A DNA stretch of 20,000 bases from an uncultured virus (IMG/VR IMGVR_UViG_3300037067_016944). Its lineage: Duplodnaviria; Heunggongvirae; Uroviricota; Caudoviricetes. Position 1 is the stretch's first letter, and every line of letters starts with the position of its first letter. The notes beneath the pieces were generated by a model. That model ran no database searches and was not told the DNA's origin. It saw only the letters and a program-made list of their open reading frames with translations. The stretch is from the IMG/VR virus record IMGVR_UViG_3300037067_016944. The stretch is one strand, 5' to 3'. Position numbers and translations under genes: made by a program. Shown here piece by piece: positions 2,297-20,000 of the stretch.

Positions 2297-3106
2297 TCAA
2301 AGTATTTTTGGTAACTGTATTCTTTGAAGTAACGCTTCAAAGGCGTCGAAAGCACGTAAGAACGTCTTGTCTTTTGTTGTCGCGTCTCCGTACCGCCTAC
2401 CAAGACCTGGTTCTAGACAGAACCATCCAGAGAAATTAGATGCTAGAGCGTCTGCTACTATGACATCTAATTGAGCATCGCCAAAACCCGCTGGCTTGGC
2501 TGCATCACCAGTTTTGAAATCGTGCACATCGACGAATGTGATTCTTGATTTCAAAAGGGACCAAAATTTCACGAATGGATTAGTTTTTGCTCTCATAACG
2601 AGCAACGCCGGGTCGAATAATAAATTCAATCGTCTGAATTTGTTAAGAAGAATTGCTATCGCTGCTGCCTGATTGTAAGATGAATTCGTTTCTGGTTCAA
2701 ACAGCAGTTGCACGTCATATGATATGCTTAGCCCAGAAGCCGTAGATAACCATTTCTGAATCAGCTCATTATCATCCTTCGCTGACATCGTACCGATACC
2801 GATCCTAATAGCTTTACATTTCAAGTATTTGCATATCTGCATAGCCCTGACGAGTTTCGGCTCTTCCGCCGCTAGTTGGCTTGGGTTGACACAACCAATT
2901 TCGGTATGCAGAAGAATTGGTGCAAGGCTGTGCTTACGCAATATGCCATCAAGTATGCTGATGGCATTATCAGGCATATTGTAGATATCACGACACCAGC
3001 CGCGCCGCAAGCAAACGCTGGTGATCTTCTTCGACGCTAATAGCTCGCAAGCTTTATCGGGGTCGTCGAACACTTCGTCAGTATAAACTGCCAGCTTTAC
3101 ATTCAT
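2297..3106 (-). CDS. Xylose isomerase-like TIM barrel (sugar-phosphate isomerase/epimerase, AP endonuclease 2 family)
   Basis: Motifs KLAVYTDE, LLFEPE, LLFDPA, FVDVHD, GFGDAQL and GWFCLEP occur in the family order. Start moved to ATG 3106, which overlaps the upstream stop as ATGA. Confidence 0.8.
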   Translation of the reverse strand: MNVKLAVYTDEVFDDPDKACELLASKKITSVCLRRGWCRDIYNMPDNAISILDGILRKHSLAPILLHTEIGCVNPSQLAAEEPKLVRAMQICKYLKCKAIRIGIGTMSAKDDNELIQKWLSTASGLSISYDVQLLFEPETNSSYNQAAAIAILLNKFRRLNLLFDPALLVMRAKTNPFVKFWSLLKSRITFVDVHDFKTGDAAKPAGFGDAQLDVIVADALASNFSGWFCLEPGLGRRYGDATTKDKTFLRAFDAFEALLQRIQLPKIL

Positions 3107-4353
3107 AACTCGACTATTTGGCTGTGCTTCGGACCGGTTCTGACCCAATGCAATCCGAAGAATTGCGACATATCAGACAAGTCATCGCAGCTTTCGTTCA
3201 CACCGCTTTCGTATGTTCCGTTATTTTCGATGACTGGTTGCAAATGTAGACGCAACCAGTTGATGACCTTGGGTGTGAAGACCTCTTTATATGTCGTCTT
3301 ACCCTTGACGGTTCTATCAACGAAGTTGATGAAGTTGAGGCTATATAAGACACGCCCGTCTCTGAGCAGACCACCAGCCAGAGCATTCACATATCTTGCT
3401 CTTTCTGTCGGGAATTCGAAGATACGTCTAACCTTCTTGGTGACGGACGTCATCATTGCATATCTGTATTCTTCGACGAATTCATCGAAGTTGTCATATC
3501 CGGCCTGTTTCGCTACAGCTTCCCACCCAATTTCTCTCGCTTCCCAATAATTGCCGGTATAGCATTGCTCACCGGTAGCCGCCGATTCGTTGCTAATGCG
3601 TATCGGGTTGGTGCGTAAATTTATGATGACATTTGTGATTGCTCTACCAGGAAGACCGGCATCAGCAACTAACTGCGTCGGGTGCGTTTGCCGCGAGGTG
3701 CAGTATGGGTATTCAGCGAAGTTGAGATCAAGATCGACACCCTGCGAACCTTCGACAAGAACACGCATCCCCTGCTTTGCTATGCCGCGATTCAGTTCCA
3801 TTGTCAAATCTGCGATAGTGCAGAACTCACGGAGTTCCTCATAGTCTCTTGCCAGCTTTTGCTGTGGCAGACGCATAGCTTTCGCTGCAATGGCCGCACC
3901 ACATCCCTTGAACGTGCTACCAGTTTTGATGGTTTCGCGTTCATATTGTTTGTTCTCTTCAGTGATTACGTTGGCCAACGGGTGGATGGTCAATCTTTCA
4001 CGAATCGGGAAGCCGAGTGATTCGAGGTTCGCGACTTCGCCGAATAGCGTCTTCAGGTCAATTGCAGCGCCGGCGTTGATGTAGAGTCGCGTGTTCTTAT
4101 TGATGAATGCTGATGGAATATGCTGGACTAGTATTCGCGTGCCGTCATCAAGCTCTGTGTAGTGACCAGAATTCGTCATCCAGTTGTTGGTTGCTAGATG
4201 GAAATCGTATTTGTCAGCCAACCAAGAATTGAGAGAGCCCTTTCCAGACGATCCGGCACCGCCGTCAGTCGTGACGACTACCATTTCTCCATTTTGGCCC
4301 GGCGTGAATGGATGCACTGGTGTTGTTCTGTGGTTTGGATAGCTAGCTGACAT
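3103..4353 (-). CDS. purZ: PurZ-type adenylosuccinate synthetase homolog (putative N6-succino-2-amino-dAMP synthase)
   Basis: PurA-fold motifs GSSGKG, NSGH, GSTFKG, EGSQG, YPYCTSR, NPIRI, TSVTKKVRR, LNFINF and TGP. Ser replaces the catalytic Asp of PurA GDEGKG, and NFxN replaces the GTP-specific TKLD. Start moved to ATG 4353 (GAGGG ribosome-binding site). Confidence 0.85.
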   Translation of the reverse strand: MSASYPNHRTTPVHPFTPGQNGEMVVVTTDGGAGSSGKGSLNSWLADKYDFHLATNNWMTNSGHYTELDDGTRILVQHIPSAFINKNTRLYINAGAAIDLKTLFGEVANLESLGFPIRERLTIHPLANVITEENKQYERETIKTGSTFKGCGAAIAAKAMRLPQQKLARDYEELREFCTIADLTMELNRGIAKQGMRVLVEGSQGVDLDLNFAEYPYCTSRQTHPTQLVADAGLPGRAITNVIINLRTNPIRISNESAATGEQCYTGNYWEAREIGWEAVAKQAGYDNFDEFVEEYRYAMMTSVTKKVRRIFEFPTERARYVNALAGGLLRDGRVLYSLNFINFVDRTVKGKTTYKEVFTPKVINWLRLHLQPVIENNGTYESGVNESCDDLSDMSQFFGLHWVRTGPKHSQIVEL

Positions 4354-4367
4354 ATTTCCCTCTTTTG

Positions 4368-4616
4368 TTAATCTGTTGGATCGACTGGTTTCATCCAATC
4401 TTTACGTACGCTGACGTCACGTTCTCGCTCTTCCTTGCGGCAAGTTGTCTTATTGCAGTGCTCACACTGGTCGTTGATATGCTCGACCCATTTAACATGC
4501 ACCGTATACCATTCCTCAGATGTTTGTGTAACCACAATACCAACCGCTGGCATACGGATACCATGACCGCGCATCTGAGTGATCACAACTACATCGCCAT
4601 TCTTAAATGCACTCAT
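4368..4616 (-). CDS. Small hypothetical protein, SH3/KOW-like beta barrel with CxxC
   Basis: 82 aa; FKNGDVV..I...GIV...Y.V.V.W pattern with a CEHC...C insert. First gene after a spacer containing TGTATT. Confidence 0.6.
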   Translation of the reverse strand: MSAFKNGDVVVITQMRGHGIRMPAVGIVVTQTSEEWYTVHVKWVEHINDQCEHCNKTTCRKEERERDVSVRKDWMKPVDPTD

Positions 4617-4649
4617 TTTACACTCGCTTGATACGTGGCCTACCTATAG

Positions 4650-4655
4650 AATACA
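4650..4655 (-). promoter_or_regulatory. TGTATT candidate phage promoter element
   Basis: 33 nt upstream of ATG 4616; same hexamer lies at similar spacing before three other genes. Confidence 0.5.
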
Positions 4656-4677
4656 TACGCAGAGGTCGCGTAATGGA

Positions 4678-5019
4678 TTAGACTAACACAGCTTGGACGT
4701 CATAGCCGTCTGCGGCCCAGACGTTGATTTGATCGCTGTGTTTGGTTTGGTTGGCGACTCTTACTGCTCTTGGTAGAGGTAGAATTTCGATTACCTCGTC
4801 AGAGATCCCACCACGATTAATAGGTCGTTTGACTGCTACTCGATTATTCTGTTGCAGCCTCTGTTTGATTCTGATTGCTGTCTGGACTTGTTCAAGGTCA
4901 TGTAAAAGAATTGTCAAGCTCTGCCCCAATTTCGCTTCTAACGCTGCGAGCCATCGGTCAGATTTGATCAGTAATTCAGCGTTGTCGCCAAGTTCATCAA
5001 TGATGTCGAATTCAATCAT
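4678..5019 (-). CDS. Hypothetical protein
   Basis: 113-aa ORF with AAGGGG ribosome-binding site, overlapping the upstream gene by 8 nt. Confidence 0.7.
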   Translation of the reverse strand: MIEFDIIDELGDNAELLIKSDRWLAALEAKLGQSLTILLHDLEQVQTAIRIKQRLQQNNRVAVKRPINRGGISDEVIEILPLPRAVRVANQTKHSDQINVWAADGYDVQAVLV

Positions 5020-5236
5020 TTTCTATCCCCTTGACATTTGGTTGCTCTTCTTCAACCTCCACTAACCAATGTGTCGGCATCCACACCAGCTTTCCTAGTA
5101 GCTCGACCCTACAGAACCCATTGCCGATTTCGCGAATGATACCTATTTCATTATGCCAGATATGCTGCTGATTGTAGATGCACACCAACATCCCAATTTT
5201 GACGGCACTATTGGTCATTGTGATGACCTCAAACAT
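5012..5236 (-). CDS. Small hypothetical protein, SH3/KOW-like
   Basis: About 74 aa; VKIGMLVCI...IGII.EI....CRVEL...VW pattern; fits the operon spacing. Confidence 0.6.
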   Translation of the reverse strand: MFEVITMTNSAVKIGMLVCIYNQQHIWHNEIGIIREIGNGFCRVELLGKLVWMPTHWLVEVEEEQPNVKGIEND

Positions 5237-5245
5237 CAATCGTAG

Positions 5246-5935
5246 TTACTTAAATATCTTTTCGATCTTGGATGGATTGTCTCTAAGCTCCTTGATGATG
5301 GTTTGAGCTTGTTTGAGACTAACTCCATACCGGTGTGCCTTACATGAGGCTATAATCTTGGCCGAATTGATGTTACCGCATAGCTTTATCGGCCTATTAA
5401 TGCATGCTTGTATCGCTGCTAGAGACGCATTATGGGCAGATATATTGGCCTTGGCTTGAGCACATCGGAGATTGATGTCGGTCCGTAGCAAATTAGGGGC
5501 CGGTATTTCTTTTATCGCCATGCAGAGATTGTCGATGTCGGATTGTTCTCTAGATAAGCAACCGAGAACAAATCTTATTTCTTGTACTCGCGGTAAGTGC
5601 TGCCTTATGAACGCAGTAATCGCCAATGTCTCTGCTTTTGTCTCGCCTGGCGATTTAGTTCCGAGTGCGATTTCAAAGCCATCACACGACAAAGCGTGGA
5701 TAGACATCGTATGGAATTTACTAACTCCAGACTTGTCGCCCTTAGGCCAATCTACTGTGGTTAGAATCTTATACGCCGCCTGTCTTTTGACTCTCTGCAT
5801 TGAGGCGTCAGCGACAAGATCCGGGTGGACGACTATTGCACCCATCTTATAGACGTGAGCGAGTTCCATCGCTTCGTTCAACTCACTCGCCTGCATTATG
5901 TCGAGTTCAAGTTTTTGGCTTATATAATATAGCAT
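5246..5935 (-). CDS. DeoC (deoxyribose-phosphate aldolase)-like TIM barrel, divergent
   Basis: AIVVHP, TTVDWPKG, CDGFEI, LLRTD, PIKLCGNI and RYGVS align in order with DeoC VCVNP, TVIGFPLG, ADEIDM, FIKTS, GVKASGGI and RIGTS. Confidence 0.7.
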   Translation of the reverse strand: MLYYISQKLELDIMQASELNEAMELAHVYKMGAIVVHPDLVADASMQRVKRQAAYKILTTVDWPKGDKSGVSKFHTMSIHALSCDGFEIALGTKSPGETKAETLAITAFIRQHLPRVQEIRFVLGCLSREQSDIDNLCMAIKEIPAPNLLRTDINLRCAQAKANISAHNASLAAIQACINRPIKLCGNINSAKIIASCKAHRYGVSLKQAQTIIKELRDNPSKIEKIFK

Positions 5936-6011
5936 GTTGTGTCCGTTCCCTTGTTAATTGCCGAATGTTCAAATACATGGCGTGTATTCGAACAAATAAT
6001 GACACAACGAT
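5934..6011 (-). promoter_or_regulatory. Nested stem-loop over the translation start of the DeoC-like gene
   Basis: Inner inverted repeat at 5966-5994 has 12-bp arms, fully paired with one G-U in the minus-strand RNA, and a 5-nt loop. Outer arms GTTGTGTC (5936-5943) and GACACAAC (6001-6008) abut the ATG. Confidence 0.6.
5972..5977 (-). promoter_or_regulatory. TGTATT candidate phage promoter element
   Basis: 36 nt upstream of ATG 5935. Confidence 0.5.
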
Positions 6012-6065
6012 AACTAGAAACTATATGGCAGCATCATCACAGATTCAATATTTTGCTTAGATGTA

Positions 6066-6263
6066 TTACTTAGGCTTCTTGATTTCGACGTTCTGTTTTT
6101 GAGTGTGTCCAGGGATTGGATTATGGACAGCGAATTCAGTACCAACCGATAATTGGTTGTAAGCTGTTCCGCCACCATGCGGACCAGTAAATGTCTTCTG
6201 CTGCTTGGTACCTTCCGGTACTACCGGCTTCGATGGCATTTTGTTCTGATCTAGCATGGTCAT
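6066..6263 (-). CDS. Small hypothetical protein
   Basis: 65 aa, ATGA overlap with the upstream gene and GGAG ribosome-binding site. Confidence 0.65.
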   Translation of the reverse strand: MTMLDQNKMPSKPVVPEGTKQQKTFTGPHGGGTAYNQLSVGTEFAVHNPIPGHTQKQNVEIKKPK

Positions 6264-6889
6264 CTCCCTAAGCCGTAGGCTATTAAATCGACATTTATAT
6301 CTTTGATGTCGATGTCGAAATGGGTTAAGATGTCGTCAATGGCATGTCTGGCGAATTTCACTCTATTGACGCCCGGCAAGTAGTGAAAACTCACAGGCTC
6401 TATTGGTTCTGTTTCGTCTAGAATTGTGATGGTTGGTGGATTGACGTCATTAAGACGCTGGTAGGCGATGCCATATTCGAAATTTGTACCACGTCCAGTA
6501 GGGACTATCACCAACACATAAGATGCAGTAGATATACCCTCATATTCACGCAAGGCTTTTTGACGCAAAGAATCCGGGTCGACATCTCTTGGTATCTTGC
6601 TTGTGGTAATTTCCTCGCCCCATATCGTCCAATCGAAAGCTATTGGGATTTGTAGACTTTTGAAGAACTCTATGAATGCCCTAGCTCGCTTCCAATTTGA
6701 TAACGTCGTTGCAACATATATCGATTTATCTCTATCCCAAGAGATGACGTGCCAACTATCGGTGAGATCACCGTTTGACTCCATCGACCAATAATAATTA
6801 CCACCGCATTTCTCACATCTACCATCAATCCATACGGCTGCGGAAAACTCTGAGCTGCAGTACGGGCAAGTGAGGTCTTGGGTTATCAT
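6260..6889 (-). CDS. Zn-ribbon fused to nucleoside 2-deoxyribosyltransferase / nucleotide N-glycosidase-like domain
   Basis: N-terminal CPYC-x13-CEKC, then SIYVA...FDWT...EGI..A..VLVIVPTGRGTNFEYGIAY. The GT..E.G.A motif contains the family's catalytic Glu. Confidence 0.75.
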   Translation of the reverse strand: MITQDLTCPYCSSEFSAAVWIDGRCEKCGGNYYWSMESNGDLTDSWHVISWDRDKSIYVATTLSNWKRARAFIEFFKSLQIPIAFDWTIWGEEITTSKIPRDVDPDSLRQKALREYEGISTASYVLVIVPTGRGTNFEYGIAYQRLNDVNPPTITILDETEPIEPVSFHYLPGVNRVKFARHAIDDILTHFDIDIKDINVDLIAYGLGR

Positions 6890-6896
6890 AAGTTAT

Positions 6897-7841
6897 CTAC
6901 ACATCATTGCAGATTATATCTATAGCCTGGTGATGATCTAATTTGTTGAATCTTGTGGTAAAATCGAATCGATTATAGGAACTGCAAAAGTAGAACTTAT
7001 GTCTGGTTTCTGGTGGTAGTGTGCGGCTCGCGTCTTCGTAATATCTTGCTTCTTCGATGAATCTCTTCTTACGGCTGTCTGCTGTGCAGTCTAGGTTTTG
7101 GCCATAGAAATGCAACATTTCCTTACCATCAACAACCACAGCTCCCATATCAATACCGAAGATATATATCTTATCGTAGCCTAACCATAATGCTACTTGC
7201 ATTGCTGCATAGACGCTTGATCTGCCAATATGGAATCCGCTTGCCAAGTCTGTGCTGAATCCGAAACCAGGAATATTTTTAATGAATATTGTCCCTGGTC
7301 TGATATCCTGAATCATTGTAGAATTGAAAATGTAGCCGTTATATCTCGACCATAGATCATTATGCCGTTTTAATTGTGAGATATCACAGAACAACCAATA
7401 CTTCGTCGGCCAGATGCGTGCATCTGGTTTGTTGATTGACATAATATCGACACGTGGATTGACAAGCAAGCGTGTCGTGTCAACTTCAAGCACGCTAGGG
7501 CCATTGGCGATTATTGCTAGCACTCGCCCGACGCATGAATTACGTAGTTCACGCAGCTTTCTGGTGCTAGCTTCTGGCGGATCACGTGTGACGACTTTGA
7601 CTGTCGGCTTATTGACTCTACCCGGCTGTTGTTTTGCTGCAACACCCCTCCTAGGTATTACTGGTGGTCGACGGGGTAGCTGTGAAGCAAGTGGAGGAAT
7701 TACAGCATGCGGCCTCATAACAGCCCGCAGAGCTTTCGTGACGGAAGGTTGTGGGCGAACTGCTGGTCTAGCAGCTCGCGGCAGAATAATCTCGCGTCTG
7801 GTGTTGTTGCTTATTGGTCGGACTCTTAAATTTAAAATCAT
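6897..7841 (-). CDS. DUF115/Maf-like (GT29/GT42-type fold) glycosyltransferase-like protein with Pro/Arg-rich N-terminus
   Basis: Motifs AIIANGPSV, MSIN, YWLFCD and SSVYAAMQVALWLGYDKIYIFGIDM. The first ~95 aa are low-complexity and rich in P, R and V. Confidence 0.75.
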   Translation of the reverse strand: MILNLRVRPISNNTRREIILPRAARPAVRPQPSVTKALRAVMRPHAVIPPLASQLPRRPPVIPRRGVAAKQQPGRVNKPTVKVVTRDPPEASTRKLRELRNSCVGRVLAIIANGPSVLEVDTTRLLVNPRVDIMSINKPDARIWPTKYWLFCDISQLKRHNDLWSRYNGYIFNSTMIQDIRPGTIFIKNIPGFGFSTDLASGFHIGRSSVYAAMQVALWLGYDKIYIFGIDMGAVVVDGKEMLHFYGQNLDCTADSRKKRFIEEARYYEDASRTLPPETRHKFYFCSSYNRFDFTTRFNKLDHHQAIDIICNDV

Positions 7842-10459: not shown

Positions 10460-11626
10460 TTATCCCGGATAGTGGCAAGTCTTGCCACAGAAGTTTCGAA
10501 GAGTGGTCCCCGTCTCGTCATGTTTGACCACATAATCCGGTTGTATCGGTATCTTCCCAGCACCACCGGGGCCATCTACCACGAACGTTGGTATAGCATA
10601 GCCAGAAGTATATCCTCTTAGACCCTCAATAATTTCTACACCTTTCGAGATTGGAGTTCTGAAGTGTGCAGTTCCAGTGACCGGATCGCATTGGTATAGA
10701 TAATATGGTCTTACCCGTATCTTCAACAAGAGATGCATTAACGATTTCATAGTTTCAACATTATCGTTGATACCTGATAGGAGTACTGTCTGTGAACCAA
10801 GTGGTATGCCTACATCAGCCAGCATTGTACAAGCTTTCGCACATTCGGGAGTGCATTCGTCTGGATGTGAGAAATGTATGCTCACGAAAAGTGGATGGTG
10901 CTTCTTGAGAACGTTGCACAACTTACGTGTAATTCTCTGCGGTAGGACGACCGGCACCTTCGTACCAATTCTGACGATTTCGACGTGCTTTATAGTGTGT
11001 AGCTCGCTCAATATCGAATCGAGTTTGCCGTCTAAGAGCAGCAGTGGATCGCCGCCAGACAAGATTACATCTCTGATCTCGTCGTGTTGCCTTATATAAT
11101 CGAAGGCAGCTTTCAACTGTGTCGGTGTCGTCGTCTTTGCGTTCTGGATGCCGATTAACCTCGAACGAGTGCAGTATCGACAATAACTTGAACAACGTCC
11201 AGACACCAAAACGAGTGCCCTGTCGCGATACCTATGGACGAGTTTTGGGATGGGGCTATCTCTGTCTTCTGCTAGCGGATCTTCAGCTTCGCCTGGCGAT
11301 GTGTAGAATTCGTCGAAGGTTGGAATAACCGTCCGTCGAAGTGGTTGGTCGGGGTCGGTCGGCGATATCAGGCTGAGATAATACGGCGTTATATTGACTG
11401 CCTGCCTGCCGTAGCTATAGAGCTTCACCATAGCCGTGCTCTCTTTGCTACTAAGATCAATGACGGCCTCTAGTTGCTCCTTCGTCGTATATCTATTACT
11501 TAACTGCCACCGCCAGTCGTTCCAATCCCCGTCGACTATACCTGGAAAATATCGTTCGCGAAAAGCTTGTGTTATAGAACTAGGTGGCTCGGCGACCAAC
11601 GCCGATTGGCCCTCTGAGCTGTCCAT
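10460..11626 (-). CDS. kamA: KamA-family radical SAM protein (lysine 2,3-aminomutase)
   Basis: Motifs WNDWRWQL, EDPLAED, VHRY, CSSYCRYCTR, SGGDPL, RIGTKVPVVLPQRIT, PYYLYQCD and PGGAGKIP (PLP-binding Lys). Start moved to ATG 11626 (AGGAG ribosome-binding site). Confidence 0.9.
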   Translation of the reverse strand: MDSSEGQSALVAEPPSSITQAFRERYFPGIVDGDWNDWRWQLSNRYTTKEQLEAVIDLSSKESTAMVKLYSYGRQAVNITPYYLSLISPTDPDQPLRRTVIPTFDEFYTSPGEAEDPLAEDRDSPIPKLVHRYRDRALVLVSGRCSSYCRYCTRSRLIGIQNAKTTTPTQLKAAFDYIRQHDEIRDVILSGGDPLLLLDGKLDSILSELHTIKHVEIVRIGTKVPVVLPQRITRKLCNVLKKHHPLFVSIHFSHPDECTPECAKACTMLADVGIPLGSQTVLLSGINDNVETMKSLMHLLLKIRVRPYYLYQCDPVTGTAHFRTPISKGVEIIEGLRGYTSGYAIPTFVVDGPGGAGKIPIQPDYVVKHDETGTTLRNFCGKTCHYPG

Positions 11627-11642
11627 TATTCCAACGCTCCTA

Positions 11643-13826
11643 TTATCGGATATCAGTGACGTGGGAGAACCTATCGGTTCTTTCAACAGTGATTTGGTGT
11701 GGGAAGACGTCGTGGAAACAATCACTATGTGAGATTATAAAGATGGATTCAAACCTAGTTGCTAAATCATCTTTGATCACGCTTATCAACATCTGACGGC
11801 CAGACTCGTCGAGAGCTTTCTCGGGTTCGTCCAATACTAGGATATTAGACTGCGGGCCATGGATGCCCTGGTGTAGGTCGAACACTGCGAACATGAAGGC
11901 TAGATCGGTGCGACCACGCTCTCCGCCGCTCTGGAAATCGTAACCCCAAAGATTGCTCTCGACGCCAAGTGAATCAGTCAAGGACACCTTGATATCCAGT
12001 CCGAACAGGTCTAAATAATGGTGTAACCTTGAGTTGAAGTATGGCTGGTGTCTGCTAATCAAGTAGCTCTTGATCTTCCTACGATCACTATACGCCTTCT
12101 GAATATATAACAGGTGCGTTAATATGATATTATAGGTCGTTAAGTCTTTCTGCTCCGCTTTGACTTGATCTTCATTTTCCTTGATTTTTTGGCCGAGTTC
12201 TATAATCGATCTAGTGTGAGTGTTCTTTTCATCTGCAATATCTGTAGCATCTTTTACCGCTTGACGCATCGAATCTAATAACGTGTTCCGTTGTGAGTTC
12301 TTTGCATTTGCTTCATTGACCGTAATATCCGGCTTTGTGGTCGCCAGTTTGCCTCTGGTAGTTGTTATCAGTTTTTCTAATTGGGCCTTTTTAGCCTCTA
12401 GCTCAGATTTAACCGATGCTGCCGTTTCGTTAGCAGCTTTCGTCGACGCCTCAAGTTGCTTGTCAATGGCGGCTACCATCGCGTTAGATTTTGTAGAAGC
12501 CGCTGATATAGCAGTTTCCGCTTCTGATTCTAGTTTTTCGATTTGTTTGTTTATCTTAGCAATTTTAGCTTCTTGGCTGCCGATATCACTCTGCAGCTTA
12601 AGCACTTCACGTTCTGCAGTATTTTTTACAGCTTTAGGACCATCGATCTTGCTATTTGCGTAATCGGCTGGAAGTTCGCGTTCGCATTCGACACAGATTT
12701 TACCAGACTTTGCAATCCACTTTTTGATAATGGTGTCTTGCGAAGTAACGATGCCATTTTGGTTTGAAATCTCAGTACGTATAGCTAGTATCTTCTTATT
12801 GATAACGTCTATTTCATCTTGCTTACTCTTAGTGGCAGCATCGCACGCATTTTGTATTGATTCCTCTTCAGTGTCGGATGATTCTGAGACCGCATCCTTC
12901 GCTGTTTGGGCTTCTTCTTTCAATCGCATCATAGTTTTTAGCTTCACGTTCTCGGCATTAGATATACCTGATTCTGCTGTGGTGATCTGCGATTGAATCT
13001 CGGTTATTTTGGCGTTGATCTTATCAACTATAACCCATTTTCTAGCTAATGCATCAGTATCGATCAAAACGCATTGTGCCGCTTTTTCTTCATATTCTTT
13101 TGCCAGCTTTAATTTAGATTCACGACGTTCTTTTCTACTGGCTTCAAAAGTCGACGATGAGCTTTGAGCAGTATTGAACTGCTCAACGAGGGTAGCTATA
13201 GTCGACTCCAAGTTGGCTATTTTCGTCTTGCGCTTCTCTTGTTCGATTAGCGCTCTATCGTATTTATCTTTCGCGACTTCGGCGTATATCGATAGACGAT
13301 CGATACCCATAATGCGTTCGAACGACTGCCGCCTGGCTTGGTCTTGCATAGCTAGCCACGGCTGGCGATATTGCGAGAAGAAGACAGATCCGCAGAATAG
13401 GCCATAATCGAATTTCAACTCTTTATCTAACAACCTCTGTTGGTTGCCGGTAGTCGAAAGTGTGCAGTTGATTATTTCTTGCGTGCCGCGTCTAAACAGG
13501 AGCTCGGTATCGCCTTGGCGAGTCCTAATGCGAGTTAGCTCATCGCCATTCTTGAACCTTAAACCTACTTTCGCATTGCCAGAAGAAAACCAATTGAGAA
13601 TTCTGTCACCAGGATTCTGGTTGTAGACGGTTTTCCCAGATAGACACCATAGTATAGCCTGCATCATAGAACTCTTACCGGAGCCGTTTGATTTGCCATA
13701 TGTATCGGCTCTATCTAACACGTTGCCGACTATAAAGCACTGCTCCATGCCAGCCAGCTTAAGCGTCGTGTTATACGGACCCCAGCTAATGAAATTCTCG
13801 ATGCTGACTGAATCTAGGTCGATCAT
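11643..13826 (-). CDS. SbcC/Rad50/T4 gp46-like recombination ATPase
   Basis: Walker A NGSGKSS, Q-loop FFSQ, coiled coil with Zn-hook CVEC, signature SGGE, Walker B LVLDE and H-loop IISH. Confidence 0.92.
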   Translation of the reverse strand: MIDLDSVSIENFISWGPYNTTLKLAGMEQCFIVGNVLDRADTYGKSNGSGKSSMMQAILWCLSGKTVYNQNPGDRILNWFSSGNAKVGLRFKNGDELTRIRTRQGDTELLFRRGTQEIINCTLSTTGNQQRLLDKELKFDYGLFCGSVFFSQYRQPWLAMQDQARRQSFERIMGIDRLSIYAEVAKDKYDRALIEQEKRKTKIANLESTIATLVEQFNTAQSSSSTFEASRKERRESKLKLAKEYEEKAAQCVLIDTDALARKWVIVDKINAKITEIQSQITTAESGISNAENVKLKTMMRLKEEAQTAKDAVSESSDTEEESIQNACDAATKSKQDEIDVINKKILAIRTEISNQNGIVTSQDTIIKKWIAKSGKICVECERELPADYANSKIDGPKAVKNTAEREVLKLQSDIGSQEAKIAKINKQIEKLESEAETAISAASTKSNAMVAAIDKQLEASTKAANETAASVKSELEAKKAQLEKLITTTRGKLATTKPDITVNEANAKNSQRNTLLDSMRQAVKDATDIADEKNTHTRSIIELGQKIKENEDQVKAEQKDLTTYNIILTHLLYIQKAYSDRRKIKSYLISRHQPYFNSRLHHYLDLFGLDIKVSLTDSLGVESNLWGYDFQSGGERGRTDLAFMFAVFDLHQGIHGPQSNILVLDEPEKALDESGRQMLISVIKDDLATRFESIFIISHSDCFHDVFPHQITVERTDRFSHVTDIR

Positions 13827-13906: not shown

Positions 13907-14533
13907 TTAAATGCGAGTTCTGCAGACCCATGCTACATTATCAAAAGCAGCCTTATTATACGGAATCAGGTGGTTATCACAACATGCCTGCTCTATATCC
14001 TTGTCGCAGATTTCGTGCCAATTCCATTTCTTCTGGAACATGTCGCAGTAGAATTTGTCAGCGTTCTCGCAATAATCATGTGCCATAATATAATCTCCCG
14101 TTTTTATAATGGCAGACAATATCGTGAATTCACTTTTCTTATTACCTCCATCGCATAAAACAAGCGTCACGCCACTCTGCGCGACGAAATCTTTGATGTG
14201 CTGTTTGCAATCATCAGTATCGAAAATATTCTGTACCTTAATATCGACGCCTTTGACTCTGAGTTCAGTGTAAAATGGGTGCTCACAGATATCATATGAC
14301 ACGAGCTGGCAATCTAGACCAAGATTTCTAATTACGGTGGACAAGAAATAGGTGAACCCACCGCCACCAGTACCAATTTCTAGTATTCTGCTTGGTTTAA
14401 CTTTTTCGATGAAGTCGGCGAATATTTGATATGCCAAATGATTCTGTTGAGCTGAATATCCAAGATATTCAGATCCATAATGATCGTCATCTGCCATATC
14501 ACTAAACTTGGTAATGTCAGATGTTATGTCCAT
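13907..14533 (-). CDS. Class I SAM-dependent methyltransferase (CmcI/Methyltransf_24-like)
   Basis: Motifs KPSRILEIGTGGGG, LVSYDI, LVLCDGG and YIMAHDY. ATG 14533 preferred over TTG 14551. Confidence 0.8.
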   Translation of the reverse strand: MDITSDITKFSDMADDDHYGSEYLGYSAQQNHLAYQIFADFIEKVKPSRILEIGTGGGGFTYFLSTVIRNLGLDCQLVSYDICEHPFYTELRVKGVDIKVQNIFDTDDCKQHIKDFVAQSGVTLVLCDGGNKKSEFTILSAIIKTGDYIMAHDYCENADKFYCDMFQKKWNWHEICDKDIEQACCDNHLIPYNKAAFDNVAWVCRTRI

Positions 14534-15426
14534 AATAATTCTTTTTGGCAATAGGTATCGATACTCGATACGACTCTTGACATATCTGAGAACGACTGTC
14601 GTTTGTCTGCAACTCTGACCGGCCTTTCTAATAAAGCCATCAATTCGAATTTCGTTGAAAAAGTTGATAAATTCAACCTTTCTATTGTCGATTTAGGTAT
14701 GAACGGACGGTCGTCCATTACCGGTACTAAAACTCGTGTCCCTCGATAGGCCATATCTATCACACTATGTTCATAACTACCAGGATGAGTCAAGATATAT
14801 GTTTCAAAATGAGAGGTCGCATCAAGATAATCAGTATACGATTTTTCTGCTATCGGCATCACCCACCTGGGAAAATTTTCAGATGTAGCGCAACCGCAAC
14901 GACGTAACTGAGAAATAGAGAATCGATGCTTGCATGGTGTTAACCAGTTGTAAAGCTGTAGGCTCCATTCTTTGTTTGTGCCACAGTACGGTGGCCAGAC
15001 ATGATCAAGAAGAATAGTGCTTTTAGATTTGATGTTGTTATGCTCATCCAAGATTTTGGATAAGCACGGCAGCGGAATCTCTTCGCAGTGTGTTATCGTT
15101 GCTTGTGGCAGATAAACAAAGCAATAATCCACATATGTTTTTGTTAGGCCCAGCTCCATGAATGATATAGTTTTGTATTTTGCTCGTCTCCGCATCGCAG
15201 CTAGTTGGCCAAACTCAAGATCTCCGAAGCAAGCATGGAACAAAACAAAATCTGGATGTGTGTTTGATAGTGGTTCATATATGCTCTGGAATTCTAATGC
15301 AACATGTGGCAATTTTGAAAATTCATCCCATAACGCCCATGTCATCATATGCACCGAGCTACGAGATTCATTAAGGCTACTAGGGTTCTTTAAGCTCAAA
15401 ATACAAAGACTATAAGATTTAGACAT
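14524..15426 (-). CDS. Putative GT-B glycosyltransferase-like protein
   Basis: C-terminal YILTHPGSYEHSVIDMAYRGTRVLVP resembles a degenerate GT4 E-x7-E..A.G..V motif; located in the glycan cluster. Confidence 0.5.
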   Translation of the reverse strand: MSKSYSLCILSLKNPSSLNESRSSVHMMTWALWDEFSKLPHVALEFQSIYEPLSNTHPDFVLFHACFGDLEFGQLAAMRRRAKYKTISFMELGLTKTYVDYCFVYLPQATITHCEEIPLPCLSKILDEHNNIKSKSTILLDHVWPPYCGTNKEWSLQLYNWLTPCKHRFSISQLRRCGCATSENFPRWVMPIAEKSYTDYLDATSHFETYILTHPGSYEHSVIDMAYRGTRVLVPVMDDRPFIPKSTIERLNLSTFSTKFELMALLERPVRVADKRQSFSDMSRVVSSIDTYCQKELLWT

Positions 15427-15428
15427 GG

Positions 15429-16457
15429 TTAATTCTGCAACAGCACCATCTTCCTATTTAATATTGGTATGATTGTGCCACCTCTATATCTTGATTGAAT
15501 AAGCGCATGCATATCGATGCCAGGATACATCCATTTATATTGTTCTTCTCCCTCTTCTGGCAGCTCATAGAGAAGCATATCAGATATCTTTTTAATTTGG
15601 TCTAATAAAGCTTCAAGCTTTTCGATTGGGTTTTCTTTAGCAAAATGATGAAACACTGCTAATGCAAAAACACAATCGAAATGTTTGGTGGTTTTGCTTG
15701 CAATATCGAAAATATTAGCGTTATATGCTTCGAATCCTAGTTTATCGAACAACATCTTTAACACACGATATCTGATGGGATTATATTCAACACCTGCCGC
15801 TGACTGTAGTAGATCCTTCAAGCTATATAGCACATGGCCGTGACAACTCCCAAGATCAAGAACTGATCTAATGCTGCGAACCTTCACAACATCTGCTATT
15901 TGTTGCTCTTTTAGATCATAACTGCAGCATGGCCAATCTATGATGTCTGGATGCGGGATAGCCTGATACATCATTCCTGGATATAACACCTTCAAATCAT
16001 TTAGTAGATTCTTCCACCCGTCTTCTCGTTCGCAAATCGTGAATTTAATTGGTTGGTGTGTAGCAAGCAAAATTGATATTCTGTGCATGCCATCCCACAC
16101 TCTTATTTCGCCATTACATCTGATTTTCACACATATAGGGCCGTAATAATAAGACACACCATTTATGACTTGTGTTGTTGGCTCTTCTTCTCTAAAATTC
16201 GGCGCTATCTCGAACAGATGCTTGAAATTATTGTACTGTCTGATAATATCTTTTCTAGTGCTCAACAACCCATTCCAAACACTACCATTTATCTCTAGTT
16301 GTGATTCTAGCCATTTGAAATATTCTGTTTCCTCTATCGGGATGTTGATGTTTCGTATCCATTGTTTGGCTGTTTTATAATGCGGTGAACTAATGATTTC
16401 ATGTTTTAAATCTTCACTCCATGGGTCGTCGCCTAGCTTAACCATTTTATATTGCAT
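15429..16457 (-). CDS. ParB/Srx-like domain fused to class I methyltransferase
   Basis: N-terminal half has GPICV...IRVWDGMHRISIL (ParB DGxHR). C-terminal half has SVLDLGSCHG, GVE and FDCVFALAVFHH. Confidence 0.75.
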   Translation of the reverse strand: MQYKMVKLGDDPWSEDLKHEIISSPHYKTAKQWIRNINIPIEETEYFKWLESQLEINGSVWNGLLSTRKDIIRQYNNFKHLFEIAPNFREEEPTTQVINGVSYYYGPICVKIRCNGEIRVWDGMHRISILLATHQPIKFTICEREDGWKNLLNDLKVLYPGMMYQAIPHPDIIDWPCCSYDLKEQQIADVVKVRSIRSVLDLGSCHGHVLYSLKDLLQSAAGVEYNPIRYRVLKMLFDKLGFEAYNANIFDIASKTTKHFDCVFALAVFHHFAKENPIEKLEALLDQIKKISDMLLYELPEEGEEQYKWMYPGIDMHALIQSRYRGGTIIPILNRKMVLLQN

Positions 16458-17098
16458 TATTTATTCCACCAGAGCCGTAGATCGTCATTGTAAGTTTCTT
16501 CAACGAGTCGTCGTAATTCTGGTGCATAATAACAAGCTGATGGTTTGTGTATGCTGATATTGAGATGTCCAAGATCAGGAAATCCAAATCGCTTCTGCAA
16601 GCCGGACCAGAAAGCACCTACTTCATGCATTTCTCGTATGACTTTAGCTACACATTTTCCCTCATAAAGTAAGAAATACGATATTGGCGTTATATGGGTA
16701 TCTAGGATTTCGTCTTCTGGTGGATTTTGTACGAGATTGCAGACAGTGCGGCAAAACACGTCAAATGGCTGGCCAGCTAACCGCTGCAACTGTGGTCCAA
16801 GGCATGGCCTTATTCCCGGTGTACAACATTTCTCCTGCCAGACTGATACTAGTCTGTCGAAAGGATTACGGATAATAGCCCATGTATACCAATCATCATC
16901 AAGTTCTGCTATCCATTTCATTGACTCGACATGGGGCCAAGTTCGACTATGGACCATTTTATATTTTTCAACTGGCTCTAATTTGAAGTGCTTTTCTAGA
17001 GCGCAGCGGATCGAGCTACATGCACACTTTGGGATAGAAACATGAGCCCACTTCTGCTTGTCATCTACAATAACTAGTGGAGGAAACTTCTTCGCCAT
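16457..17098 (-). CDS. Sulfotransferase family 2 protein
   Basis: 5'-PAPS-binding IPKCACSSI and 3'-phosphate-binding IIRNPFDRLVS, with C-terminal HLN and Y..D...W. Start moved to ATG 17098 (TGATG overlap). Confidence 0.85.
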   Translation of the reverse strand: MAKKFPPLVIVDDKQKWAHVSIPKCACSSIRCALEKHFKLEPVEKYKMVHSRTWPHVESMKWIAELDDDWYTWAIIRNPFDRLVSVWQEKCCTPGIRPCLGPQLQRLAGQPFDVFCRTVCNLVQNPPEDEILDTHITPISYFLLYEGKCVAKVIREMHEVGAFWSGLQKRFGFPDLGHLNISIHKPSACYYAPELRRLVEETYNDDLRLWWNK

Positions 17099-18756
17099 CA
17101 GTCGTACTGCCAGTTGCGAAAACACTTCTTGCAGGCTTCACACTGTTCGCCCGCTTTCATCTCTCTGAATCTTTGACAGTATTGGCTTTGCCAGATTATA
17201 CTGTCAGTTATCGTGCCATTTTCTTTTCTTGGTGGTGCTACGCTGTTGCAGATCGTTATTGATCTGTTCCCGTTTATGCCAATTGTCTTCCATGGGAACA
17301 AACAATTTCTTCTAACCTCATCTTTGGCTATGAGGATTGGATACCGTAATACGATGTCGGCATTTGGAAGAGCCTTGATGGCATCGATCAAGACTTGATC
17401 GTCTTTTGTCAACACCAAATCCCAGAACTTCGTATTTTCGCTGTCGTCAAAATGTGGGAGAATATTATGTAGATGAACCCCTTGTACGCCTAGTGATTTA
17501 GCTAATACTAGGAATTCTGCGATGTCTGATAAATTGTTTCTATCACAGACACGGGATAGGTAGGTTGGAATACCTATAGCAACACTAGTCCGAACGCCAG
17601 CTAATGTCTTCTCGAAAAGATTATTGCCGGTGATCCGCTCATATTCGGCGGCGTTGGATGCATTCAGACTTACTGATAAATAATCTGGTAAACACCCAGC
17701 ATCTCGTAGCCACGGCAGTCGCTCTGCTACGAGCGTTCCATTTGTGATAAGCCCGGCATATAGATTTTTACCATATGAATGCCACTGTTCTGCAGGTTTT
17801 TTGATATATTGCATTAGCGATATCAAATTCTCACACATAAACGGCTCACCAAAACCACAGATACATAGTGATTGAATAGATGGGAATCTAAATAGCAAAT
17901 CGTCTATGACACCAGCGGTCATATCTGGGAAGTCTTCTAGATCTTTGTGTTGCCGCCAGCAGAAGTTGCACTTCAGATTGCATTTGTTAGTGATATAGAG
18001 AGTGGCCGATGTTGGCTGCTCTAAAAAGCTCTGCATTCGATGGTATTCTGGTCGCTTAGCAGTGAAGTTCTTCTCACCGAGTTGTAGCCTCTTATCGCTT
18101 ACAACGCTAGTATAAGCACCTAAAAGTGCGAATAGGTTGGCTTCAGTTGGTTCTCTCTTGAAAATTTCAAAAAGCTTCTTCGGGAGACTTTCGAGCCACA
18201 CATAACCGAATTCTTTGAATTTCTCCATCAAGTTCAGATATCGCTCGAAGATGAGTTCGTTATTCCATAGCGGCGAGTGTTTACCGACAACATATTCATT
18301 CAGTGTATAGGTATATCCATCCGCTTTCATCCTGTCGAGTTGCTCGACCTCACATGACATATGGCTGAGGTCGTATGGATAATTCTTGAAGATCTCGAAT
18401 TTGTATATCTTGATACCATAGATGACGAAATCGATATGAACGTCCAATAAGCGAAAAGCGACCATCGAGCATTTAGGGTCTGTGCTAACGATAGTATTAT
18501 ACATCTTCTCGATGGCGTCAGGATTCAATACCATGTCCTCATCTACTTCTATATAGTAAGGCGTCTTACACCTTACCAACATCTGTTGGAAGGCAACAGA
18601 CATAGGACTATAGTCTCTAATGACATCGACTAGTACTTTGATGGTCTGAGTCTTCAACGCATCTAAACATAATTGAAGGTTCGGATTTGTCCCAGAACTA
18701 ATGACGAATGCTGTAATTTGTTTAGATAAGTCAGTGTTGTGTTTAACAACTTGCAT
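17098..18756 (-). CDS. GT2-like glycosyltransferase fused to radical SAM/SPASM(twitch) domain
   Basis: N-terminal GT-A (ITAFVI, CLDALKTQT, YYIEVDEDM with DxD). Radical SAM motifs CNLKCNFC, GFGEP, ITNG and SVSLN. C-terminal CLFPW...G.ITIC...CxxCxxC. Confidence 0.85.
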   Translation of the reverse strand: MQVVKHNTDLSKQITAFVISSGTNPNLQLCLDALKTQTIKVLVDVIRDYSPMSVAFQQMLVRCKTPYYIEVDEDMVLNPDAIEKMYNTIVSTDPKCSMVAFRLLDVHIDFVIYGIKIYKFEIFKNYPYDLSHMSCEVEQLDRMKADGYTYTLNEYVVGKHSPLWNNELIFERYLNLMEKFKEFGYVWLESLPKKLFEIFKREPTEANLFALLGAYTSVVSDKRLQLGEKNFTAKRPEYHRMQSFLEQPTSATLYITNKCNLKCNFCWRQHKDLEDFPDMTAGVIDDLLFRFPSIQSLCICGFGEPFMCENLISLMQYIKKPAEQWHSYGKNLYAGLITNGTLVAERLPWLRDAGCLPDYLSVSLNASNAAEYERITGNNLFEKTLAGVRTSVAIGIPTYLSRVCDRNNLSDIAEFLVLAKSLGVQGVHLHNILPHFDDSENTKFWDLVLTKDDQVLIDAIKALPNADIVLRYPILIAKDEVRRNCLFPWKTIGINGNRSITICNSVAPPRKENGTITDSIIWQSQYCQRFREMKAGEQCEACKKCFRNWQYD

Positions 18757-19742
18757 TATGCCATTCCGAAATGACGGTTGATTGTGTTTATATTACCAAT
18801 GTTTTTCTCAACGGCTGCTACAAAAGCGGTATCCCAGTAAGGAGATAAAACCTTCCAGCTTAATGATTTCTCAACCCGTTGCCTGTTTTCAAATCCTACT
18901 CGCTGCCGCAAGTCCTTGTTTTCTAGTGAGTGCAGGCGCTTGTTCATCTCTTCTACAACTAGTTTCTCTGGATTTACTGGCACGATCCAATCAGAATCCA
19001 GAATCATTCGGATAGAGCCGACATCAGTGCAAACTACCGGGATTCCACAAGCGCACGCCTCCAATACTACGCGTGGCATACATTCACTCAGGCTTGTCAT
19101 GACCAACACATCGATTGCGTTATAGAACCGCAACATGTGGTCAAGAGATCTCTCAATGAAAAATTGTTTTCCGTGTTGAGATTGTATCTCGACCTTAAAG
19201 TCGAGCCGGTCAAGTAGATGTAGTCTCTTGACGTCATCGTGCCTTCCAGCCCAACCAACGATCAGATTATTCACATATCTGCCATTACGCCTAGATAGTG
19301 AAGGGATTGGTAATTTCTCATTTGTAGGTCGCCATTTACCTCTCGCCCAAGTTGAAACCGGATCTCGTTTCAAAGGAACAAAGAACTCAGTATCTATTCC
19401 TTCTGGCAAGAAAATAGAAGGACACATATAATGTCCTTCACAGTACTTAAATGTCTGTGGAGAGATGCCGACAGCAAGGTCGAGATATGGGTATGGTTGT
19501 AGATTCTCTATAGGACCGGCATGACCACCGATAACTTTTACACCTTTGCGTTTAGCTCTGTTGCATAATTCAAGAGCTTCTGATGAAATATCAGGACCAT
19601 GAATATAGACTGCATCAAGACCGTCAAGCACGACTTCATTGTGTCTGAAGATAGTTAGATCGTGCTTGGTATATCGTTGTTGTTCTTTGTCAAGGAAATA
19701 ATATGCCCAGCCAAATTGATCAACAACTTTTGCAATCTTCAT
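18756..19742 (-). CDS. GT4-family glycosyltransferase
   Basis: Motifs EGIDTEFFVP, VGWAG and FYNAIDVLVMTSLSECMPRVVLEACACGIPVVCTDVG (E-x7-E). ATG 19742 preferred. Confidence 0.9.
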   Translation of the reverse strand: MKIAKVVDQFGWAYYFLDKEQQRYTKHDLTIFRHNEVVLDGLDAVYIHGPDISSEALELCNRAKRKGVKVIGGHAGPIENLQPYPYLDLAVGISPQTFKYCEGHYMCPSIFLPEGIDTEFFVPLKRDPVSTWARGKWRPTNEKLPIPSLSRRNGRYVNNLIVGWAGRHDDVKRLHLLDRLDFKVEIQSQHGKQFFIERSLDHMLRFYNAIDVLVMTSLSECMPRVVLEACACGIPVVCTDVGSIRMILDSDWIVPVNPEKLVVEEMNKRLHSLENKDLRQRVGFENRQRVEKSLSWKVLSPYWDTAFVAAVEKNIGNINTINRHFGMA

Positions 19743-19936
19743 TAGCAAGTCATTTCTTACTACTACCGTAGTTTAGTTGATTATCACCTTATGCCCTTGC
19801 CTGATATTTACTTTAGAATTTATTATTTAAGTATTTGGAATAGACCAGGACCCTTTTCCCGGCAGGGATAAATGGGAAATTCGTACGCTTTTCTGTCAAT
19901 ACTCAGTAACGTGAAAGTTGGAGTTCATGGAAGCTT

Positions 19937-20000
19937 TCATATCCCCGCACGGTCCAGGTCATAGGGTTCGATGTTGCCTGGTGTTTTTAGCAGCTTCTTA
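19937..20000 (-). CDS. Possible 3' end of a gene entering from beyond the window
   Basis: The only minus frame open from the edge reads KKLLKTPGNIEPYDLDRAGI-stop (TGA at 19937-19939). Confidence 0.35.
   Translation of the reverse strand, partial: KKLLKTPGNIEPYDLDRAGI

Follow-up and report, generated by a model that had tools for sequence, protein, structure and literature searches.

A 20,000-nucleotide stretch of DNA from an uncultured virus (IMG/VR record IMGVR_UViG_3300037067_016944; Duplodnaviria, Heunggongvirae, Uroviricota, Caudoviricetes), called the window below when its full length is meant, contains a purZ homologue surrounded by three further enzyme genes. These encode a nucleoside deoxyribosyltransferase (NDT)-like protein, a protein resembling the deoxyribose-phosphate aldolase (DERA) DeoC, and a TIM-barrel protein. 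All four genes lie on the minus strand between positions 2297 and 6889, in the order NDT-like gene, DeoC-like gene, small open reading frames (ORFs), purZ and TIM barrel (Table 1), and together they form a real, conserved, phage-specific and partly translationally coupled module centred on an enzyme of the PurZ clade. We give an even chance to the proposal, which is drawn from gene content, that this module helps to put 2-aminoadenine (Z) in place of adenine in the phage DNA and that it does so without DatZ or MazZ. To our knowledge, Z-genomes have so far been characterised in small sipho- and podoviruses, with DatZ/MazZ and DutZ/DmtZ as the helper sets. An earlier note on this DNA, made from the letters alone, had placed the four genes on one strand at these limits and had given them the same names; the placement was confirmed, and the names hold at the level of fold or superfamily.

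The window comes from the genome of an uncultivated, T4-like jumbo phage approximately 390 kb in size. It shows 86 to 89% nucleotide identity to positions 243,132 to 263,099 of a viral contig of 388,105 bp that was rated 99% complete (G001). A Pfam scan of this contig revealed the structural genes of a T4-like myovirus (Gp23 capsid, Gp20 portal, and T4-type sheath and baseplate), as well as a split PolIII-alpha polymerase, RecA, DnaB, a class II ribonucleotide reductase, ThyX, and a wealth of glycosyltransferases, sugar epimerases and dehydratases. Sequence nearly identical to 2297-6889 was found in assembled contigs of four runs from three landfill/groundwater metagenome studies, and a megablast of the region against deposited phages gave no match, nor did a search of viral contigs for an identical stretch of 40 bases. 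Relatives were gathered with two profiles: that of the NDT-like protein led to 5 viral loci and that of the DeoC-like protein to 21 loci, on contigs of 30 to 408 kb. The 21 loci comprise 5 close ones (L001 to L005) and 16 distant ones. Searches for gene families at the level of the genome were run on five related records, two of which are 99 to 100% complete.

The synthetase gene was examined for the features that separate PurZ from PurA. Its ORF (3103-4398, with the likely start at the ATG at 4353) matches PF00709 (2.2e-25) and phrog_1211 (1.7e-45). Alignments to archaeal PurA and to phiVC8 PurZ showed a P-loop of GSSGKG, compared with GDEGKG in PurA, and placed Ser50 at the position of the catalytic Asp13 of PurA and of Ser14 of phiVC8 PurZ. 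Ser stands at the Asp13 position in 17 of 17 jumbo-phage homologues, and the available text of Poubanne et al. (NAR 2026, PMC12884076) reports this Ser in 100% of 147 phage sequences of the PurZ group. At the site of phiVC8 Phe12 the window protein carries Ala48, and other jumbo-phage clades carry Trp or Phe. In a maximum-likelihood tree of 25 rows, from which archaeal sequences were left out, the jumbo-phage sequences and the PurZ proteins of phiVC8, PMBT28 and BCSR129 formed one clade with support of 100/97. This clade holds 21 rows (3 canonical PurZ, 17 jumbo-phage sequences and BpsS-140); outside it, PurA of E. coli groups on one side with the second PurA-like gene of G001, and PurZ0 (MamaPearl, Olihed) splits next. 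The jumbo-phage PurZ sequences fall into two groups in no settled mutual order, with that of L002 on a long branch. Together, the Asp13-to-Ser hallmark and the placement in the clade suggest that the enzyme uses dGMP. When used as a query, PurZ matched 203 of 50,697 deposited phage genomes.

Two of the purZ homologues in related loci merit separate description. In L002 (12519-13763), the gene at the same position as the window purZ is 30% identical to it, although the neighbouring genes are 72 to 86% identical; it keeps GSSGKG, sits on a very long branch, was missed by the PF00709 genome search, and looks like a product of fast evolution or replacement. In L023 (11717-15352, plus strand), the purZ homologue is a 1,212-aa ORF with inserted intein-splicing, LAGLIDADG and Hom_end homing-endonuclease domains, and the presence of the intein suggests that the gene is under strong constraint.

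Next, the usual helpers of PurZ were sought. The earlier note had seen no DatZ or MazZ gene in the window, and no HD, MazG or DUF550 family was found there among the 24 ORFs scanned. It had also proposed a search of the whole genome with hidden Markov models of both proteins, and this search was run on the five related records. In six-frame translation, HD_3, YfbR-like, MazG, DUF550 and DUF5664-N (PF13023, PF12917, PF03819, PF04447 and PF18909) were absent from all five, and the phiVC8 DatZ protein matched none of them. PF01966 (HD) was matched in one of the five, by a protein with a SpoT-like HD_4 domain. Of the 454 G001 ORFs with a length of 80 aa or more, all but the two shortest (452) were scanned against Pfam; no DatZ or MazZ family was returned, and the only related match was the SpoT-like HD_4 domain. 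The positive controls performed as expected: DatZ of phiVC8, PMBT28 and BCSR129 matched PF12917, PF13023 or PF01966, and the PMBT28 pyrophosphohydrolase matched PF18909 and PF04447. This negative result does not extend to MazZ-2 of S-2L, for which there is no Pfam model and no separate search was made.

The absence concerns DatZ and MazZ and not dATP removal as a whole, for which the relatives do encode candidates. A dUTPase gene is present in all five related records, in two copies in both complete genomes; two NUDIX genes are carried by the relatives; and both complete genomes carry an adenosine-deaminase-family gene within a few kb of one dUTPase, which is not the one near the window. By family membership, the dUTPases, the NUDIX genes and the adenosine-deaminase-like gene are possible routes of dATP removal. 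The dUTPase nearest to the NDT gene lies approximately 14 kb away in G001 and 14 to 23 kb away in other relatives.

The gene surroundings of these candidates are as follows. By synteny, a dUTPase gene of G001 (263836-264330; L052:16836-17330) lies approximately 0.8 kb past window position 20000; it scores 114.8 bits against NCBIfam dut (cut-off 103) and is followed by genes for a CAP-domain protein, a DUF7873 protein (318 bits) and a dCMP deaminase. A second cluster of nucleotide genes, far from the window (G001 43022-48455, L041:5022-10455; G005 164915-171057), contains a dUTPase paralogue, a divergent thymidylate-kinase-like gene, a NUDIX gene and the adenosine-deaminase-family gene.

The NDT-like protein was identified by way of its homologues. 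The window protein had no direct Pfam match and did not reach PF05014; direct sequence searches of this protein and of the DeoC-like protein against the PDB gave nothing useful. The AlphaFold model of the NDT-like protein was poor (pLDDT 50.1). A profile built from 15 close homologues returned 616 proteins, and PF05014 was matched by 34 of the 54 profile hits that were scanned, 13 of them above its cut-off. The wider profile matched solved NDTs (8qc0, E 9.5e-5), BlsM and MilB in a PDB profile search, and the leads in the ESM Atlas were also NDTs (0.76 to 0.88). Through the profile of its homologues, rather than through a direct Pfam match, the window protein can be assigned to the NDT superfamily. 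NDT-family genes are common in phages generally, as judged by the ESM Atlas search.

The protein consists of an N-terminal CxxC...CxxC zinc ribbon (approximately residues 8 to 28) and an NDT-fold domain (approximately residues 55 to 190). Six residues (Y58, N65, W87, E115, G134 and E138) were invariant in 54 NDT-like sequences. In the PDB profile alignment, solved NDTs have their catalytic Glu opposite Glu138 and their catalytic Asp opposite Glu115; together with Tyr58, whose role is proposed from position alone, these two residues form the putative catalytic triad. Gly132 takes the place of an Asp, located six residues ahead of the nucleophile, with which nucleoside NDTs bind the 5'-OH; dNMP hydrolases and DmtZ likewise have a small uncharged residue at this site. 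Uncharged, space-saving residues in the 5' pocket are described as a mark of enzymes that act on 5'-phosphates (PMC12884076, available text), and from Gly132 at this site we infer that the substrate is a dNMP, most likely dAMP by analogy. The zinc-ribbon extension (window 6806-6889) is limited to the subclade of the window and L001 to L005. In distant loci the protein is 125 to 148 aa long and has no zinc ribbon; that of L026 has a different Cys-rich N terminus, and the other 14 loci have a bare NDT domain.

For the DeoC-like protein, DERA is clearly the nearest fold, and the predicted structure is a (beta/alpha)8 barrel of DERA type. By sequence, the protein does not match PF01791, or any Pfam family at E up to 0.01, and no DERA was matched in the PDB even with the family profile (one chance ribosomal hit was returned). 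Residues E10, D12, W63, P64, K65, G66, K73, E88, E119, R121, R151 and K184 are invariant in the family. No lysine is present on model strand beta6 (residues 149 to 151) or on its flanks (PAPNLLRTDIN). A relaxed hhalign against E. coli-type DERA, which was colinear over 206 columns and not statistically significant, placed the invariant Arg151 opposite the Schiff-base Lys167. In this same nonsignificant alignment, LLRTD was paired with FIKTS, TVDWPKG with TVTNFPHG, RYGVS with RFGAS, and PIKLCGN with GFKPAGG, so that Lys184 stands opposite Lys201, the second active-site lysine on beta7. Lys184 is invariant within PIKLxGN. The E. coli DeoC query returned only relatives of at least 80% identity, which made the DERA profile a shallow one, and in a single-sequence hhalign residues 22 to 68 alone were aligned.

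Taken together, the residue pattern makes the protein look like a DERA derivative that has kept the phosphate-binding side and the second lysine and has lost the Schiff-base lysine. Unlike class I aldolases of the DeoC/DERA type, it has an invariant Arg151 in place of that lysine, does not match PF01791, and is approximately 13% identical to DERA. Classical aldolase activity on deoxyribose 5-phosphate (dR5P) is unsupported because strand beta6 has no lysine and Arg151 is at the Schiff-base site, and the known action of DeoC on dR5P, which the earlier note had invoked, cannot simply be assumed for this protein. The family was absent from a pattern scan of 185,579 cellular genomes and was found only in phage contigs.

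The fourth enzyme is a barrel of the xylose-isomerase-like type. ORF 2297-3148 matches PF01261 (AP_endonuc_2) with an E value of 1.9e-8 and 34.8 bits, against a cut-off of 31.1, and the G001 orthologue scores 41.6 bits. The gene was taken as 2297-3106, with the ATG at 3106, because relatives start at this internal Met. All 30 ESM Atlas matches were PF01261 clusters ("sugar phosphate isomerase/epimerase"; score, 0.96), and the best PDB profile match was AsbF, a 3-dehydroshikimate dehydratase (E 8.5e-4). Residues D46, D165, D196 and K198 are invariant and E137 is nearly so; the acidic residues E137, D165 and D196 and the Glu of an LEP motif are spaced like the metal ligands of PF01261. The site of the usual PF01261 His ligand is occupied by His or Arg and is followed by the invariant D196-x-K198. 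The protein thus resembles PF01261 barrels (AsbF, sugar-phosphate epimerases, endonuclease IV) in its above-cut-off match and its metal-ligand-like spacing, and it is unlike them in being translationally coupled to purZ, a context that we did not find described for PF01261.

The linkage of the four genes was assessed across the 21 loci by tblastn and HMM, in line with the survey of neighbourhoods that the earlier note had recommended. Given the DeoC-like gene, purZ was present in all 21 loci (truncated in L025, where the contig stops within it). The NDT-like gene, which L022 lacks, and the TIM barrel, which would lie past the end of the L025 contig, were each present in 20 of the 21. The order of the module is kept while the identity of the DeoC-like protein falls to 36%, and it persists though other genes have been inserted or lost between the members. 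The ATG of the TIM barrel overlaps the stop codon of purZ (ATGA). A scan for promoters and terminators gave no clear operon boundaries, with promoter-like sites below the shuffled expectation. The three partner proteins (NDT-like, DeoC-like and TIM barrel) had no tblastn match in the 50,697 deposited phage genomes, and for the NDT-like protein nothing beyond noise appeared at E up to 10.

Several small ORFs accompany the four enzyme genes. The 65-aa ORF shows 79 to 98% identity in L001 to L005 and is detectable in L027 and L034. The 75-aa ORF had no family match in Pfam, PHROG or NCBIfam scans. The 113-aa ORF was considered as a MazG-like helper and was rejected, with no PDB or Pfam profile match and no EExxE-type or MazG-like motif in its alignment.

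Table 1. Positions of the module genes and the accompanying ORFs in the window, with the basis of each assignment
Feature	Length	Position	Strand	Basis or conservation
Conserved ORF downstream of the TIM barrel	71 aa	1761..1976	-	tblastn matches in 5/5 close and 11/16 distant loci
Xylose-isomerase-like TIM barrel, sugar-phosphate isomerase/epimerase/AP-endonuclease-2 superfamily	269 aa	2297..3106	-	PF01261
PurZ-type adenylosuccinate synthetase homologue		3103..4353	-	PF00709, phrog_1211, NF038379, Ser50, tree
Small ORF	82 aa	4368..4616	-	tblastn match in L001, the closest relative, alone (1/5 close, 0/16 distant loci)
Conserved ORF	113 aa	4678..5019	-	tblastn matches in 5/5 close and 12/16 distant loci
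Small ORF	75 aa	5012..5239	-	tblastn matches in 5/5 close and 10/16 distant loci
DERA/DeoC-fold (beta/alpha)8 barrel	229 aa	5246..5935	-	Predicted-structure fold, residue pattern
Small ORF	65 aa	6066..6263	-	ATG overlaps the NDT stop codon (ATGA)
NDT-superfamily protein	209 aa	6260..6889	-	Profile search, PF05014 via homologues, PDB profile matches

The module was compared with the published systems. According to the available text of Poubanne et al., in PurZ0 phages DutZ converts dATP and dGTP to dNMPs, and DmtZ, which has an NDT fold and forms a monophyletic group, hydrolyzes dAMP to adenine and moves dR5P from dAMP onto Z, dR5P being a known product of the enzyme (PMC12884076). The available text of Yang et al. 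(bioRxiv 10.1101/2025.10.22.683976) describes PF05014 NDTs and uracil-DNA glycosylase (UDG; PF03167) as statistically associated with dZ-enriched aquatic phage contigs. One of these NDTs prefers dA, and NDT-M2 acts on nucleosides with the proposed role of depleting deoxyadenosine species; the NDTs co-occur with DatZ and PolA and are not co-localised with an adenylosuccinate synthetase domain. The idea of NDT-based removal of dAMP, put forward in the earlier note, was therefore sound, but the route could not be called undescribed, since DmtZ and the dA-preferring NDT had already been published.

The module is like the DutZ/DmtZ route (Ghobes of Gordonia, Wayne of Arthrobacter) in that a gene for an NDT-superfamily enzyme lies near one of the PurZ family, DatZ is lacking, and dUTPase-family genes are present in the genome. 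It also shares with DmtZ a small uncharged residue at the 5'-OH-binding Asp site of nucleoside NDTs. The shared logic would be a conversion of dATP, first to dAMP and then to adenine and dR5P, or a base exchange onto Z. The differences are that the synthetase here belongs to the PurZ clade and not to PurZ0, that the NDT-like gene is neither beside nor fused to a dUTPase gene, that the third residue of the triad is Glu115 and not Asn, that a zinc ribbon is present in the window subclade, and that the phage is a jumbo myovirus of approximately 390 kb, compared with a 40-kb siphovirus. With the NDTs of Yang et al. the window protein shares membership of the PF05014-related NDT superfamily and a proposed role in depleting deoxyadenosine species, and a UDG is present in G001; however, here the NDT gene is 2 kb from purZ, DatZ is absent, and the window protein falls below PF05014. 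The canonical purZ-datZ-mazZ cluster (phiVC8, S-2L, PMBT28) has in common with the module a PurZ-clade synthetase with the Asp13-to-Ser change, but in the module the DatZ and MazZ families are absent, the partners are the NDT-like, DERA-like and TIM-barrel proteins, and Ala48 replaces Phe12.

The two barrels go unmentioned in the available text of PMC12884076, where an aldolase appears only as an assay reagent and an isomerase only as a coupling enzyme, and the words "aldolase" and "isomerase" are absent from the main text of bioRxiv 10.1101/2025.10.22.683976. The literature searched held no description of a PurZ module with an aldolase, with a TIM barrel, or in jumbo or huge phages. Papers combining PurZ and "aldolase" used E. 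coli DeoC as an assay reagent or were otherwise irrelevant, the adenylosuccinate enzyme of the PhiMa05 jumbo-phage paper is PurB, and the landfill megaphage paper mentions no purine or adenylosuccinate genes. Relative to what is in print, the features that appear to be new are an NDT lineage unlike DmtZ, its pairing with a PurZ-clade enzyme, the two barrel partners, and the jumbo-phage setting.

In the pathway that we favor, whose substrates and reactions are inferred from these comparisons, PurZ would join dGMP and aspartate to give N6-succino-2-amino-dAMP, from which fumarate would be released by the host's PurB, with either phage barrel as a possible alternative. The NDT-fold protein would act on a deoxyadenosine compound (most likely dAMP), breaking or exchanging its N-glycosidic bond, and would in this way drain adenine from the dNTP pool, by analogy with DmtZ and NDT-M2. 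Before this step, dATP would be cut to dAMP by dUTPase-family or NUDIX enzymes encoded outside the window. The DERA-fold protein would bind a phosphorylated (deoxy)sugar or a nucleotide and is probably not a Schiff-base aldolase, and the TIM barrel may be a metal-dependent enzyme of the sugar-phosphate isomerase or lyase type that works directly with PurZ. A bolder form of the proposal, which we regard as doubtful, is that the clade makes Z-DNA or a related modified purine by a self-contained pathway unlike either known one. In that case, the PurZ-coupled barrel would process the product of PurZ (for example, as a metal-dependent lyase that frees fumarate and replaces PurB), the lysine-less, DERA-derived barrel would carry out new chemistry on dR5P or a nucleotide, and the removal or exchange of adenine would fall to an independent NDT lineage.

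Several observations weigh against a Z pathway encoded by this module. The presence of Z in the phage DNA is a prediction from gene content, and the best NCBIfam model for the purZ product, PurZ NF038379, gave 170.5 bits and did not reach its cut-off of 300. Between the NDT-like protein, whose dAMP substrate is putative, and DmtZ no similarity could be detected: an hhalign of its family profile gave probabilities of 1.4% with the MamaPearl DmtZ-DutZ fusion and 0.1% with the Olihed protein at the DmtZ position, both of which were taken as DmtZ by gene position and the description in PMC12884076 and not by annotation. The Lys-to-Arg change that apparently deprives the DeoC-like protein of its Schiff-base lysine counts on the same side. 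A second, divergent PurA-like gene with an intact GDEGKG, in which the Asp is kept, is present in four of the five records (G001 209143-210612, L050:143-1612, minus strand; G003; G004; and G005), with bacterial purA as its best model at 133.6 bits, far below the cut-off. The relatives also carry two DNA methyltransferase-family genes (PF01555 N6_N4_Mtase and Eco57I-like) that might target adenine, and together with the PurA-like gene these fit a full exclusion of adenine a little awkwardly. Because the loci were gathered through the DeoC-like and NDT-like genes, co-occurrence covers one direction only. Finally, synteny across the clade extends over a whole 12-kb block that takes in SbcC and genes of glycan type, so the adjacency of the four genes could reflect a frozen order of the core genome and not a shared function.

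If the order is frozen in this way, PurZ would work with host genes or with distant phage genes (dUTPase, NUDIX, adenosine deaminase), and the NDT-like, DERA-like and TIM-barrel proteins would serve in salvage or in sugar or glycan chemistry. The conserved block does extend well past the four genes, through the 314-aa MptE/WaaZ-like, 246-aa, 448-aa and 186-aa proteins and SbcC; the abundance of sugar chemistry in G001, the frequency of NDT genes among phages and the generic sugar phosphate isomerase/epimerase clusters that are the kin of the TIM barrel also fit. We nevertheless hold such a separation of functions to be rather improbable, in view of the nucleotide or deoxyribose-type substrates of three of the four enzymes, the ATGA overlap of purZ and the TIM barrel, the retention of order down to 36% identity despite insertions and losses, and the experimental precedent for a role of NDTs in Z metabolism in the available texts of PMC12884076 and bioRxiv 10.1101/2025.10.22.683976. 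A different modification of a purine or deoxyribose is unlikely; in this case, an N6-succino or 2-amino intermediate made by PurZ would pass to the two barrels for further processing, and base exchange by the NDT-like protein would place the base on deoxyribose phosphate. Active-site patterns unlike those of characterised relatives in both barrels (Arg at the Schiff-base position and D196-x-K198), a PurZ clade separate from characterised PurZ with Ala for Phe12, and partner genes found in 0 of 50,697 deposited phages would all suit such a product, and DmtZ shows that the NDT fold can move dR5P onto a noncanonical base (PMC12884076, available text). However, the conserved core holds no further tailoring enzyme, the methyltransferases, radical SAM proteins and sulfotransferase at 13.9 to 19.7 kb not being conserved in most distant loci, and the Ser hallmark and PurZ clade fit an ordinary conversion of dGMP to dZMP. 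Least probable of all, and very unlikely in our view, is the full scheme of the earlier note, in which the NDT-like protein cleaves dAMP to adenine and dR5P, the DeoC-like protein acts on dR5P as a class I aldolase and the TIM barrel serves as an isomerase of the triose or sugar phosphate. This would require a Schiff-base aldolase from a protein with no beta6 lysine, with Arg151 at the place of Lys167 and with no match to PF01791, and host DeoC would already dispose of dR5P; on its side are the nearest fold, which is DERA, the retained phosphate-binding loop and K184, and the fact that dR5P is the product of DmtZ.

Should the Z pathway prove correct, the Z trait would reach giant phages of 230 to 410 kb, known from metagenomes of landfill, groundwater and other sources, whose replicative polymerase is of PolIII type, and a third, independently assembled way of excluding adenine would be added. 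Three enzymes, namely, the NDT lineage, the lysine-less DERA derivative and the PurZ-coupled TIM barrel, would become candidates for new nucleotide chemistry and for Z-DNA engineering. If the barrels turn out to have no part in Z metabolism, what remains is a new PurZ clade accompanied by an NDT, which would extend the work of 2025-26 only modestly.

Other genes of the phage and of the window were also noted. In G001, a PolIII-alpha-type replicative polymerase and a UDG-superfamily gene are found at 289091-295514 (L054:5091-10514) and 307069-307785 (L055:3069-3785); the polymerase is apparently split into two ORFs, the first with the PHP and N-terminal part and the second with the finger/HhH part. 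Directly upstream of the NDT gene in the window, a 314-aa protein (6897-7841, minus strand) shows weak MptE-like and WaaZ (KDO transferase) similarity and keeps its syntenic position in 19 of 21 loci. Two further MptE-like genes occur in G001, one of them fused to a GT2 domain. A KamA-family radical SAM aminomutase (10460-11725, minus strand) is conserved in close relatives and scores 464.7 bits against TIGR03820, lysine 2,3-aminomutase (cut-off 525), with the glutamate and arginine 2,3-aminomutase models close behind. Farther along, a run of tailoring-type genes (13907-19748, minus strand) encodes an FtsJ/CmcI-like methyltransferase, a 300-aa ORF, a class I methyltransferase, a sulfotransferase, a 552-aa radical SAM protein and a GT1 glycosyltransferase. 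Most of these genes are not conserved in the distant loci, and their products may act on glycan or on DNA.

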